Shown in pieces: positions 33,870 through 62,975 of a stretch of DNA of 64,000 nucleotides. This stretch comes from Acidobacteriota bacterium (GTDB lineage Bacteria; Acidobacteriota; Vicinamibacteria; Vicinamibacterales; CAVVIG01), in the NCBI GenBank assembly GCA_046728115.1, contig JBKPDW010000172.1, forward strand, positions 454 through 64,453, read 5' to 3'. Numbering within the stretch: position 1 is the stretch's first letter; each line of letters begins with the position of its first letter. The position numbers were made by a program, and so were the translations under genes. The notes below the pieces were generated by a model. It was not told the DNA's origin. It saw only the letters and a list, made by a program, of their open reading frames with translations, and made no database searches.

Positions 33870-35696
33870 TCATGGTTTCGCCTCCGCCTTCGGTTTCTCC
33901 TCCACCTTGATGAGCTGGCATTCGTGGCTCGTGGACGCTTGGGCCTTCGCCACCACCGCCGGGTCAACGACCTTCGGCTCGAGCGAGTTGTAACAGCGCG
34001 AGTAAAGCGGGTCGAACTGCGTGATCGCTCTGACCGGGGTGAACCATGCGGAAACGAATTTCCCTCCCGCGCGAAAATACGCCCCGACCGTTGTGTCGAG
34101 CACGCATTTTTTGGCCGGGCCGAAGCTATCAAGCGCCATCTTGATGCCGGGCGCTAGTTGCGTCTCGGTGTAACGCTTGGGCCTCGTTGGCGAAACGACA
34201 TCGCCGTCGCCGAGATCGAACGGTCCCACTGTTTTTGTAACCAGCCAGCAGGTTCCGCCGATCGCTGCTTTCGCGCCAAGCGCGGCGCGGATCTTCTCCA
34301 TCGCCGGCGGCGTCATTCCGATTCTGCACCCGCGAAAATCCGCCAGTTCTGGTTCCATGCCGGGCGGTACCATTCCAATAAGCCCAGCGGCGTGCTTGTC
34401 GGCGTTGAACCAGCCCTTTCCGAATTTGATCGCGGCGGAGTCGTCCGCGTGACCGAAGTAAAAGATCGTCTTGATCGGACGGTTGAGCGCCTTAAGTTTT
34501 TTGCCCAACTCCTCAGGGGTTGCGGGCTGAAGCGTGACCGCGTCGGCGGCAACGGTATTCGCGGCCGGGGCAAGCGTGGCGTCGAGCAGAACTACGACAT
34601 CAGTTTCGTTCTTTCGCGGCACGCGGGCGGGCGGCTGCTGTTGAGCCTTCCCCGCGGCCTGTTGGCCTGCGGTGTCGCGCACCTTGCACGTGCCTTTCAG
34701 CGCCACGGCGCGACCGCCCTCGCACTTGCGGTCATAGAAGGCGCGGAGCACGTCTTCCTCCGGCCCTTGAAAATCGCCGTCCAATTCGTTCGAGTCAATG
34801 CCCCCTTTGCCAAAGATCGTTTGAAGCTCCGCGTCAGTGGTGTTCAGCAGCAGCGTCAGGATCGCCCGCTCGTCATCATCTCCGGTGAAGCCGGACTGCA
34901 TTTCCTGAATCAGTAGAATCTTCTTCCGAGCGTCAAGCTTGATCTTCCCCTTGCGCCAAAGCGCGACTATCGTGCGCGCCTTGTCGTCGCTGTCATTGTG
35001 GTCTTCGATCTTCCCAGGCCCGAAGTTCGCGAGGTACCTTTCAAGCGCATCCATAGTGAAATCACCGCCCTCGAAGTCCTCTACGTTTATTGCACGTTGC
35101 ACCACTCTCGGCGCGGCGCGCTGCTGCACCACGTGCGACAGCTCGTGCGCGAGCAGCGATTGCCCGGCGTGCGTGGACGGCGAGTAGCGCCCGGAGTCGA
35201 AAGCTATGTGCTCGCCGACCGTGTAGGCGTGGGCGCTCACAGCCCGCGTGCTATCGTTCGCCTTCGCGTCGGTGTGAATACGGACGCGGCTGAAGTCGTA
35301 ACCGAAGCGTTGTCCCATCGTTTCGCGCGTCCCGACGTCGAGCGGCTGCCCGGCTGAGTTCAAAACGTCATTGACAATCGGCGGAGCGGCGTCGGCATCA
35401 CGCGCCTGCGGCGATCCGTAGCTGACGACCAGCGAGAGCGAGGACGCCGCGTGTCCCGACGTCACGGCTTCCGCCGCGCGATCCGCCTCCCGCTCAAGAA
35501 CGTCACCCGACCGCCCGACCGCAAGCTTCGTCTGCAAGTGTCCCGTAGCCTCGCGCTTGTTAGTGCACTCTTCGCATTCGCTGTCGGGGCCGGAAGCGCT
35601 GCCGCAGACGCACTTGCGTTGCAACAACTCGGGCCGAACCGGCGTGAATGACGCTTTTGCAGTAGGCTTCACTTGGGTTTGCGCTATGGCCTTCAT
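33870..35696 (-). CDS. DUF4157 domain protein (HExxH metallopeptidase-like N-domain) with an uncharacterised C-terminal region of about 400 aa; putative eCIS cargo/effector
   Basis: ORF track gives 33870..35924. I moved the start to ATG 35696 (GGAGGA upstream). LQRKCVCGSASGPDSECEEC...LQTKLAVGRSGDVLEREADRAAEAV, then VRIHTDAKANDSTRAVSAHAYTVGEHIAFDSGRY...LLAHELSHVVQQ, is the DUF4157 signature. Confidence 0.85.
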   Translation of the reverse strand: MKAIAQTQVKPTAKASFTPVRPELLQRKCVCGSASGPDSECEECTNKREATGHLQTKLAVGRSGDVLEREADRAAEAVTSGHAASSLSLVVSYGSPQARDADAAPPIVNDVLNSAGQPLDVGTRETMGQRFGYDFSRVRIHTDAKANDSTRAVSAHAYTVGEHIAFDSGRYSPSTHAGQSLLAHELSHVVQQRAAPRVVQRAINVEDFEGGDFTMDALERYLANFGPGKIEDHNDSDDKARTIVALWRKGKIKLDARKKILLIQEMQSGFTGDDDERAILTLLLNTTDAELQTIFGKGGIDSNELDGDFQGPEEDVLRAFYDRKCEGGRAVALKGTCKVRDTAGQQAAGKAQQQPPARVPRKNETDVVVLLDATLAPAANTVAADAVTLQPATPEELGKKLKALNRPIKTIFYFGHADDSAAIKFGKGWFNADKHAAGLIGMVPPGMEPELADFRGCRIGMTPPAMEKIRAALGAKAAIGGTCWLVTKTVGPFDLGDGDVVSPTRPKRYTETQLAPGIKMALDSFGPAKKCVLDTTVGAYFRAGGKFVSAWFTPVRAITQFDPLYSRCYNSLEPKVVDPAVVAKAQASTSHECQLIKVEEKPKAEAKP

Positions 35697-35953
35697 CTGA
35701 TAAGTCCTCCGTGAATCGCGCTGGCGATTTGCGCGCCGACGGATGCAGGATTTGCCTTGTCGACCATTTGAAAAGGGCGCCGTCAATTCGGTCCAGCGAA
35801 GTGGTTTTTCCAATACCGCCCGCATCGGCTGTTCCGAAAACAAACGCGTCAAACTCGAGTTCCACCGCGTCCGCAATGCGATGCCGATCGCCCGGCGCGA
35901 AATGGTGAAGCACAAGTTCTTCAATTGTGCAATTCGATATTAATCGGCTTCAT
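35560..35953 (-). pseudogene. Small eCIS-associated protein gene, apparently frameshifted; weak paralogue of 55486..55740
   Basis: A strong RBS (GGAAGGAGGACGGGG) precedes ATG 35953, which encodes MKPINIELHN and then a stop. Removing one A restores ...IELHIEELVLHHFAPGDRHRIADAVELEF. This continues as track ORF 35560..35913 and overlaps the DUF4157 start. Confidence 0.35.
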
Positions 35954-36071
35954 CCCCGTCCTCCTTCCCAACCTGTGATCTCCGTTTCGGTGAGCGGCTT
36001 TTCCAGCTTGTAGTGTTCGTATCCAGGTGCAGCTCAACTCTGCCACGGTCGCGATCGGCGTTCGTGAACGC

Positions 36072-62664: not shown

Positions 62665-62922
62665 TCACGAGTTGTGCGATGGAGGCGTACCCGCACTCGC
62701 GTAGATGAACTGGCCGTCCGGCAGCCGGCGCTCCGCCAGTTCGCCGGTTGCGACCAGGGCCTCGATGGCGGCGCGCACATCGCTCACCGCGTAGGTTCTG
62801 CGCGCCTTGCGCACCCACCACTCGCGGATACCGCGCTCCGTATCCACCGCCTTCGGGTGCGCCTGCAGGTAGCGCCTGATGATCTCTTCGATCTCCGCCA
62901 CGAGCGGTGGTCGTTCGTCCAT
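62665..62922 (-). CDS. Small hypothetical protein, first gene of the eCIS operon
   Basis: ORF track gives 62665..62991. I prefer ATG 62922 because a sigma-54-like promoter motif lies inside the longer version. The product is MDERPPLVAEIEEIIRRYLQAHPKAVDTERGIREWW.... Confidence 0.45.
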   Translation of the reverse strand: MDERPPLVAEIEEIIRRYLQAHPKAVDTERGIREWWVRKARRTYAVSDVRAAIEALVATGELAERRLPDGQFIYASAGTPPSHNS

Positions 62923-62960
62923 CTCATGCCTACGCTCCGTGTACAGGCGGATCGCGCATC

Positions 62961-62975
62961 GCACATGCCGTGCCA
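62961..62975 (-). promoter_or_regulatory. Candidate sigma-54 (-24/-12) promoter of the eCIS operon
   Basis: The minus strand reads TGGCACGGCATGTGC against the consensus TGGCACG-N4-TTGC. GG/GC spacing is exact, with one mismatch (G for T at the first T of TTGC). It lies about 40-55 nt upstream of ATG 62922. Confidence 0.35.

Follow-up and report, generated by a model that had tools for sequence, protein, structure and literature searches.

The 64,000 nucleotides of DNA analysed here, called the window throughout, belong to an Acidobacteriota bacterium (GenBank assembly GCA_046728115.1, contig JBKPDW010000172.1, positions 454 to 64,453) and carry on their minus strand a gene cluster for a contractile injection system (CIS) of the Afp/PVC superfamily. 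Genes are numbered g1 to g21 in the direction of transcription, all on the minus strand, and L-numbers (L001, L087 and so on) denote comparison loci or contigs. L001 (Ga0643290_0002738, JGI sample 3300078493) is an overlapping contig with the sheath end of the cluster, and it extends 9 kb past the end of the window. Profile matches were graded against curated family cut-offs, and those that fall below them are named as sub-threshold; the values given with matches are E-values.

All 21 minus-strand open reading frames (ORFs) listed by a first-pass annotation of this DNA were recovered at its coordinates. Twenty of them, g1 to g20, are close-set between 36072 and 62922, with a largest intergenic gap of 37 bp and 4-nt stop/start overlaps at all eight junctions for which such overlaps had been reported (ATGA at seven, GTGA at one). 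The first-pass annotation had placed all 21 genes in one polycistron with no gap above about 120 bp, and this holds for g1 to g20; g21 is separated from g20 by 375 bp (counted from an ATG at 35696) or 147 bp (from a TTG at 35924) and lies in a displaced cassette. The GC content is 0.66-0.71 in the CIS cluster and about 0.63-0.65 in the flanks, and third-position GC backs the reading frames, being 0.83-0.95 in most genes and lower in g5, g8, g9 and g21 (0.70-0.71 in g8 and g9). The 18 conserved structural genes are all full length, without frameshifts and of the lengths seen in relatives, and for this last reason the operon core appears intact. All 21 proteins are predicted to lack transmembrane segments. 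The earlier call of a complete Afp/PVC-type cluster stands, with the core folds recovered in profile searches: the models for sheath, gp19, GPW_gp25, DUF4255 (now Pvc16_N) and DUF4157 (now eCIS_core) match, and that for Baseplate_J matches below threshold. Our reading, which we hold to be probable, is that region 36072-62975 of the minus strand forms a single 20-gene transcription unit for a complete CIS of this superfamily, the particle of which is most likely released.

The operon opens with g1 (62665-62922), an 85-aa leader and possible winged-helix protein (AlkZ-like winged-helix region 5e-4, below cut-off), for which gene calling on the source contig also gives 85 aa; a search of the related loci, few of them reaching upstream of the sheath gene, found no homologue. 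The sheath protein g2 (60990-62642), the equivalent of Afp2-4 and Cis2, matches Phage_sheath_1 and Phage_sheath_1C above cut-off. In a PDB sequence search its best match is the Streptomyces CIS sheath 8bky, which aligns over the full length (4e-69), and its second best is Halogeometricum 9ezm (1e-68; listed stretch 336-545). The inner tube g3 (60447-60974) is gp19-like and corresponds to Afp1/Cis1 (Phage_T4_gp19 6.6e-44), with 74-89% identity to the tubes of relatives. Next come a zinc-ribbon protein and a Pro-rich protein, both as first described. The former, g4 (59735-60439), has two CxxC motifs and is akin to T4 baseplate-hub proteins (PF12322 T4_baseplate 2.3e-5, sub-threshold; PHROG 150 'baseplate hub' 5.4e-6), and its position is kept in relatives. 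The latter, g5 (58989-59738), is a Pro/Ala-rich protein of 249 aa (14% Pro) with no family match in Pfam, NCBIfam or PHROG profile searches; its matches in relatives sit just upstream of the cap gene, and by position alone it is a possible tape-measure (Afp14) equivalent.

The cap g6 (57664-58992), which corresponds to the tube/sheath terminator Afp16/Pvc16, is identified by Pvc16_N (formerly DUF4255; 1.7e-46), although a single-sequence PDB search with it found no match. It is followed by the AAA+ ATPase g7 (55751-57667), the equivalent of Afp15/Cis15, with a Cdc48/VCP-like AAA domain (AAA 2.6e-26) and an N-terminal winged-helix domain (WHD 4.6e-15). The conserved 84-aa protein g8 (55486-55740) precedes the effector slot. 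It has no family match in profile searches and has homologues with 32-66% identity in 42 related loci, in every one of which the gene comes after that for the ATPase.

Beyond the effector slot lie the genes for the second tube, spike, baseplate and fibre. The second tube or tube initiator g10 (54238-54912) is Afp5/7-like (CIS_tube 5.2e-5, slightly below cut-off), with 49-86% identity in relatives, and g11 (53876-54238) is a small gpX/LysM-like baseplate-hub protein (Phage_tail_X 0.037, sub-threshold; PHROG 46 'baseplate hub' 0.0019); both positions are conserved. The gp27/gpD-like hub g12 (52735-53886), split from the spike, shows weak collinear VgrG matches (NCBIfam VgrG_rel 0.0019; profile match to the VgrG of PDB 9rce 0.0034) and gave no match in Pfam or in a single-sequence PDB search. 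Its identity is 47-88% across 80 species genomes, and 1624 representative clusters match it at E<=0.001. The g12 family has neither a Pfam or NCBIfam model nor a solved structure detectable by sequence, and its 70-88% identity across several phyla is so high as to imply frequent horizontal transfer.

The OB-fold spike g13 (52229-52738) is gp5-like (Phage_base_V 1.6e-17), g14 (51898-52236) is a PAAR-like tip protein at a conserved position (DUF4280 1.8e-4 and PAAR_motif 8.5e-4, both sub-threshold), and g15 (51529-51894) is the gp25 baseplate wedge protein (GPW_gp25 9e-18). Two J-like baseplate proteins follow, g16 (49046-51532), which is Cis11-like (Baseplate_J 0.0012, sub-threshold; PDB 9gtp 'Baseplate protein J-like' 5.6e-8), and g17 (46086-49049), which matches the putative baseplate assembly protein TIGR02243 (5e-64), a PHROG 'baseplate wedge subunit' (3e-23) and the J-like chain of 9gtp (9e-7). 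The P2 gpI-like fibre adaptor g18 (43792-46089; Tail_P2_I 0.005 and Mu Gp48 0.0025, both sub-threshold) is separated by 23 bp from the tail fibre g19 (40031-43768). This fibre consists of a DUF6519 anchor (8.6e-68), an inserted BNR/Ycf48 propeller (PSII_BNR 7.7e-22) and an immunoglobulin (Ig)-like (Big_1) C-terminal region, and it has more than 3000 homologues, of which more than 100 are full length. DUF6519 is the 'eBAP5' fibre anchor, which is paired with Tail_P2_I adaptors in extracellular CIS (eCIS) loci (Nat Commun 2026, PMC12923769), and the order of g18 and g19 fits this published architecture.

A tblastn comparison of the 21 window proteins with related loci yields a conserved order of sheath, tube, g4, g5, cap, ATPase, g8, at least one DUF4157 gene, second tube, g11, hub, spike, PAAR, gp25, J1, J2, P2_I and DUF6519. 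The genomes matched by the hub protein (n=80 species) include Variovorax, Ideonella, Nitrotoga, Alicycliphilus, Pseudomonas and Bradyrhizobium, as well as Myxococcales, Acidobacteriota, Bacteroidota, Verrucomicrobiota, Scalindua, Anaerolineales and a cyanobacterium. The gene order had been noted earlier as differing from that of Afp, and so it does, but it is not peculiar to this locus; because about 80 species genomes from many phyla are arranged alike, a cap and an ATPase in mid-operon are the rule in this lineage. The operon is of a lineage-II-like type, in which the effector slot lies in mid-operon and the fibre carries DUF6519 (eBAP5), and the locus is an additional member of a well-populated, catalogued and experimentally uncharacterised CIS lineage.

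The effector slot itself is where the window departs from its relatives. In the 56 relatives with both borders visible, the interval from the ATPase gene to the second-tube gene spans 834-8541 bp (median 3613) and holds a DUF4157 gene in 54. The slot of the window measures 838 bp and contains only g8 and g9, with no DUF4157 gene. The 179-aa orphan g9 (54950-55489), the sole gene remaining there besides g8, has no family match and no match in 82 fetched loci even at E=1. Six metagenome homologues with 59-78% identity were found, and the three contigs inspected, which carry two of the six, place them in the same slot among eCIS_core genes; compared with these homologues, g9 lacks part of the N-terminal CarboxypepD_reg-like segment. 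The first 16 nt of g9 are identical at 14 positions (counted by eye) to the start of a slot effector in the close relative L076. The slot effectors were probably lost through an in-frame deletion, which would have joined the beginning of the first one to g9; the short match fits such an event. An AlphaFold2 model of g9 was discarded as unreliable (pLDDT 41). In the relative L090, the slot also carries a gene for a peptidoglycan hydrolase with PG_binding_1 and CHAP domains (4565-5326), a hint that some CIS of this family target bacteria.

A DUF4157 gene is present at the other end of the cluster. The cargo-type protein g21 (33870-35696; eCIS_core, PF13699, formerly DUF4157, 1.6e-31) had been taken as the final member of the operon; judged by its surroundings, it is not the last cistron and lies 375 bp from g20, within a cassette of 2.1 kb. 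The left arm of the cassette (35696-35925, minus strand) is a pseudogene stub of a g8-like gene, truncated at its 5' end and frameshifted, in which tblastn with a 96-aa protein of L087 finds two high-scoring segment pairs in different frames, with 54% and 77% identity. The right arm (33782-33862, minus strand) is a 27-codon second-tube stub, 89% identical to residues 5-31 of the second tube of L087, to which the window's own g10 is only 63% identical. The start of g21 is the conserved ATG at 35696, and the longer ORF from the TTG at 35924 crosses the pseudogene remnant in another frame. Furthermore, g21 shares 83% identity with the L087 slot effector, its close homologues (85-88%) fill the canonical slot in L087, L088 and L090, and its GC content is 0.62, compared with 0.64-0.73 in the operon genes. 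For one g21 homologue, the annotated source is a Blastocatellia metagenome-assembled genome. Since g21 and both flanking arms match L087, 33782-35925 is a slot segment of a different CIS of the same family. Adjacent to it, at 33296-33780, lies a fragment of a molybdopterin-binding dehydrogenase subunit (MoCoBD_2, 4.6e-5) in one ORF with the second-tube stub, and this fusion marks an illegitimate junction. The stub-flanked cassette and the emptied slot together provide direct sequence evidence that the effectors of this lineage move as cassettes between the conserved g8 and second-tube genes, which is of use for effector discovery and for slot engineering.

The architecture of g21 is of cargo type. 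In an AlphaFold2 model (pLDDT 82) its N-terminus is disordered; the DUF4157 domain contains an HExxH motif, HELSH at residue 184; next come a helical domain (about 205-340) common to many DUF4157 proteins and an alpha/beta C-terminal domain (360-600) in which His416 and Cys457 are invariant among 13 homologues. For this C-terminal domain, Pfam and PDB profile searches were empty, and a Foldseek search of the PDB with the g21 model gave no match at E<=0.001; a weak Foldseek similarity of the model to Caspase-2 and -8 (probability about 0.75) and the invariant His416 and Cys457 hint at a possible clan-CD-like protease domain. The N-terminal region bears the motif LQRKCxCG..C..C, and its extended form, LQRKCxCG..C..C..LQxKLxxG..D..E.EADRxA, is common to slot effectors throughout the family, from Pseudomonas to Bradyrhizobium. 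In AlgoCIS, loading of the cargo proteins Cgo1 and Cgo2 requires their N-terminal region and is ascribed to the AAA+ protein. Because the N-terminal motif is shared across the family, g21 is plausibly loadable by the resident machine. In addition, a second DUF4157 gene with a Cys-rich N-terminal motif lies beyond window position 64000 on the operon strand (L001 3900-5407), where the automatic gene call starts too late and omits the N-terminal region.

Directly after the fibre gene, only 11 bp downstream, starts g20 (36072-40019), which encodes a soluble, multi-domain glycosyl- and methyltransferase of 1315 aa (Glyco_trans_1_2 5e-21; Methyltransf_24 3e-6) with an MptE-like N-terminal domain (0.028, sub-threshold). 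The 'giant transferase' of the first-pass annotation is thus present, but it is a mosaic gene with debris of the resident gene downstream. Over residues 1-300, g20 shares about 77-92% identity with the fibre-linked glycosyltransferase (GT) of L091, whereas for its C-terminal part the non-CIS protein L083 is the nearer match (up to 82%). A metagenome scan with g20 returned two homologues outside any CIS context; a 2375-aa protein beside these two, considered as possibly sharing a substrate domain with the fibre, was rejected for lack of similarity. The debris (31638-33078, minus strand; tblastn with the 945-aa GT of L091 and the 952-aa GT of L093) covers residues of about 468-945 of the resident fibre-linked GT in three frames, mostly with 75-82% identity to L091 and L093 (47% for the 5'-most L093 segment) and with frame changes, and its last 253 codons still form a GT2 ORF (Glycos_transf_2 2e-13). 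Next to it, at 31239-31617 (minus strand), the gene for the 255-aa protein encoded after the GT in relatives survives in truncated, frameshifted form, 77-85% identical to residues 1 to about 130 of the 255-aa protein of L091 and the 262-aa protein of L093. These remnants show that some 5-6 kb of foreign DNA, comprising the 3' part of g20, the g21 cassette and the dehydrogenase fragment, replaced the middle of the resident GT gene. A group II intron reverse transcriptase (RVT_1 and GIIM; 19157-19981) just downstream of the CIS locus of L091, the closest relative, again points to frequent entry of mobile DNA at the 3' border of such loci.

The linkage of fibre and glycosyltransferase is the most interesting lead of the locus. 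In nine of nine loci inspected (the window, L091, L092, L093, a contig of JGI 3300047160, L095, L096, L097 and L098; L091 and L092 overlap and are both counted), a giant soluble glycosyltransferase of 926-1465 aa starts at most 34 bp past the stop codon of the gene for the propeller-bearing DUF6519 fibre. In L091/L092, L093, the 3300047160 contig, L096 (Xylophilus) and L098 it is a 939-955-aa protein with Glyco_trans_1_2 and Glycos_transf_2, followed by a protein of 255-262 aa; L095 has a 1390-aa protein with Glyco_trans_1_2 and Methyltransf_24, and L097 (Azospirillum) a 1465-aa Caps_synth-like protein. These enzymes have a common MptE-like N-terminal domain of about 200 residues (57-65% identity) and variable C-terminal modules (GT2, Methyltransf_24, Caps_synth). 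Maf enzymes glycosylate flagellins. The post-fibre GT could conceivably be a dedicated CIS accessory that glycosylates the fibre or a particle surface protein, or that modifies the producer's own glycan receptor against self-targeting, and we offer this as a tentative proposal. If it is true, swappable C-terminal catalytic modules would diversify target recognition, and the mosaic g20 would be a module exchange caught in the act. The eCIS literature searched makes no mention of a fibre-glycosyltransferase link, and the interchangeable catalytic ends suggest that the biology of CIS has a further, unstudied side, be it self-protection or glycosylation of the particle.

Regulation of the operon may involve sigma-54. 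A candidate -24/-12 promoter, TGGCACGGCATGTGC (62961-62975, minus strand), lies in intergenic DNA with one mismatch to TGGCAC-N5-TTGC and ends 39 nt upstream of the ATG of g1, with a GGAG ribosome-binding site following it. The sole exact match to the consensus lies inside g19, is at chance level and was set aside. A gene for a sigma-54-dependent bacterial enhancer-binding protein (bEBP) with AAA+ and helix-turn-helix domains and no sensory domain (29840-30892, minus strand; Sigma54_activat 5.8e-58; HTH_8) lies nearby, 3' of the locus; L093 has a fragment of such a gene in the corresponding place after its CIS locus, and the two products share 86% identity. A search for an inverted repeat that might act as an upstream activator site gave no convincing candidate. 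The position of the candidate site and the neighbouring gene for a sensor-less bEBP make sigma-54 control a reasonable hypothesis, and transcription from a promoter of this type may be governed by that bEBP.

The flanks are chromosomal in character. According to Pfam scans, the first 33 kb of the window encode sugar metabolism enzymes, pyrroloquinoline quinone (PQQ) dehydrogenases, an outer-membrane receptor, the bEBP and similar chromosomal genes. The receptor (19534-22866, minus strand) combines CarboxypepD_reg and OMP_b-brl_4 and has many DUF1080, GFO/IDH/MocA and xylose-isomerase-like genes nearby, a content that we take to be typical of Acidobacteriota. A Holin_9 match in the ORF at 26299-27426 (0.003, below cut-off) was dismissed as not credible. 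No tRNA gene was found, hence no tRNA-linked island signature. At the 5' border of the operon, a transposase of an insertion sequence (IS) element (DDE_Tnp_1; 63307-63999, plus strand) was found by profile search, and past the end of the window L001 continues with further transposase ORFs (DDE_Tnp_1, Transposase_20), then the second DUF4157 gene and a sugar-binding protein.

These features can be combined into a proposed mode of action, in which the steps of assembly and delivery are deduced from the genes alone. With the hub, spike and PAAR tip (g12-g14) as its nucleus, the baseplate (g10-g18) would form, and the tube (g3) and sheath (g2) would polymerise up to termination by the cap (g6); the AAA+ ATPase (g7) would aid assembly and load DUF4157-type cargo by means of its N-terminal signal. 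The particle would then be released, bind its target through the propeller fibre (g19, held by the adaptor g18), contract and inject the cargo. Candidate cargo is now encoded outside the operon, by the g21 cassette and by the second DUF4157 gene 5' of the operon past the IS elements, and the fibre-linked GT was partly replaced by recombination, leaving the mosaic g20 and the debris downstream. Release as free particles is rather likely, and it is favoured because a large receptor-binding fibre is encoded and a membrane protein is not.

Several observations weigh against this account. The identities of g12, g14, g16 and g18 lean on sub-threshold matches and synteny, and the slot lacks a canonical cargo gene. 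The sheath and ATPase of the donor-type CIS (L087) are only about 50-53% identical to those of the window, so the compatibility of g21 with the resident loading machinery is uncertain. With regard to transcription, the IS element lies about 330 bp upstream of the promoter candidate, the window shows no enrichment of sigma-54 sites with one mismatch (8 against 4.25 expected), and the distant relative L087 has only a weaker site with two mismatches. With regard to release, no lysis cassette was found at the locus or in the scanned flanks, and the nearest solved sheaths belong to a cytoplasmic and a membrane-anchored CIS. For this last reason, the combination of DUF4255, AAA+ ATPase and DUF4157, which had been read as the hallmark of an extracellular system, marks the Afp/PVC superfamily as distinct from a canonical type VI secretion system (T6SS) and does not mark an extracellular lifestyle. 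In agreement with the first part, the operon proteins gave no Pfam match to TssB/TssC, ClpV or TssJLM, and the ATPase is Cdc48-like.

The same machine might work without leaving the cell, either anchored in the membrane like a T6SS (the Halogeometricum model) or in the cytoplasm as a device for cell death (the Streptomyces model). The closeness of the sheath to precisely these two (8bky, 4e-69; 9ezm, 1e-68), the Halogeometricum cluster with its likewise two cis11 genes and mid-cluster DUF4157 region, and the locus without lysis genes all speak for such a role. Against it stand the large fibre, in which a propeller and an Ig-like (Big_1) region are carried on the published eCIS anchor eBAP5, and an operon in which no transmembrane protein is predicted. 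We consider a non-extracellular device a minority possibility that deserves to be taken seriously, and release of the particle remains the preferred reading.

The locus might also be decaying and non-functional, with a disarmed slot, an upstream region cut off by IS elements and a scrambled 3' end. Such decay would account for the slot without the DUF4157 gene that 54 of 56 relatives possess, for the stubs and debris at 31239-33078, 33782-33862 and 35696-35925, for the IS elements at the 5' border and for the lower third-position GC of g8 and g9 (0.70-0.71, against 0.83-0.95 in most other operon genes). It would not account for 18 conserved structural genes that are full length, unframeshifted and of the relatives' lengths, nor for the intact ORFs of g20 and g21, and two relatives are also without slot effectors. 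We regard decay as unlikely, and as less probable than a non-extracellular function.

Finally, a prophage tail module or R-type tailocin, to which the phage-derived sheath, tube, gp25, J and P2_I-like genes might point, is effectively refuted by the Pvc16_N cap, the dedicated AAA+ ATPase and the DUF4157 genes, by the finding of no capsid, portal, terminase, integrase, holin/endolysin or other credible lysis gene in 34 kb on one side and 9 kb on the other (L001), which bears out the earlier 'not a prophage' also beyond the window, and by a scan of viral contigs with the fibre g19 that found nothing.

As a CIS locus, this one adds little, for its lineage is abundant and already catalogued. Its emptied slot, effector cassette, mosaic GT and IS border are informative on how such systems evolve. 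A sigma-54/bEBP circuit, if it exists, would extend the few known CIS regulators (GerE, BTAD, RfaH). In addition, the cultured carriers of the lineage (Xylophilus, Variovorax, Alicycliphilus and Azospirillum) make the effector-cassette, GT and sigma-54 ideas testable.

Compared with known systems, the window locus has the same parts list (sheath, tube, cap, ATPase, spike, gp25, J) as Afp of Serratia entomophila and PVC of Photorhabdus (clade Ia), the C-terminal sheath domains of which are similar to g2 at about 1e-42. It differs from them in having one sheath gene rather than three, a hub split from the spike, the cap and ATPase in mid-operon and a P2_I adaptor with a DUF6519 fibre; the effectors of its lineage are also encoded in mid-operon and not at the 3' end. 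AlgoCIS of Algoriphagus machipongonensis (clade Ib) differs in clade, fibre (Alg19) and gene order, whereas its cargo proteins Cgo1 and Cgo2 have the layout of g21, with a disordered N-terminus, DUF4157 and a variable C-terminus. The CIS of Halogeometricum borinquense, the 'archaeal T6SS' (clade IIa, PDB 9ezm), has a similar sheath (1e-68) and, like the window lineage, two cis11/J-like genes and a mid-cluster region with DUF4157 genes. It secretes its DUF4157 proteins, and among the ones tested two proved toxic on expression. That system is membrane-anchored and T6SS-like, however, whereas the window operon offers no anchor candidate or predicted transmembrane protein. The Streptomyces CIS (clade IId; PDB 8bky, 8bl4, 9gtp) provides the closest solved sheath (4e-69, full length) and, in 9gtp, the only solved J-like baseplate protein with detectable similarity to those of the window; it acts in the cytoplasm, whereas the window locus has a large fibre and another gene order.

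The closest counterparts are the catalogued, uncharacterised eCIS loci with an eBAP5 fibre and Tail_P2_I (PMC12923769), for example those of Variovorax sp. OV329 and CF079, Xylophilus sp. GOD-11R, Alicycliphilus denitrificans Ylb10, Pseudomonas fluorescens PS833 and Bradyrhizobium spp., which have the same gene set and order from sheath to fibre. They share with the window the fibre architecture and the giant glycosyltransferase right after the fibre, and the window is set apart from them by a slot without DUF4157, a DUF4157 cassette at the 3' end, a mosaic glycosyltransferase and IS elements at the 5' border.

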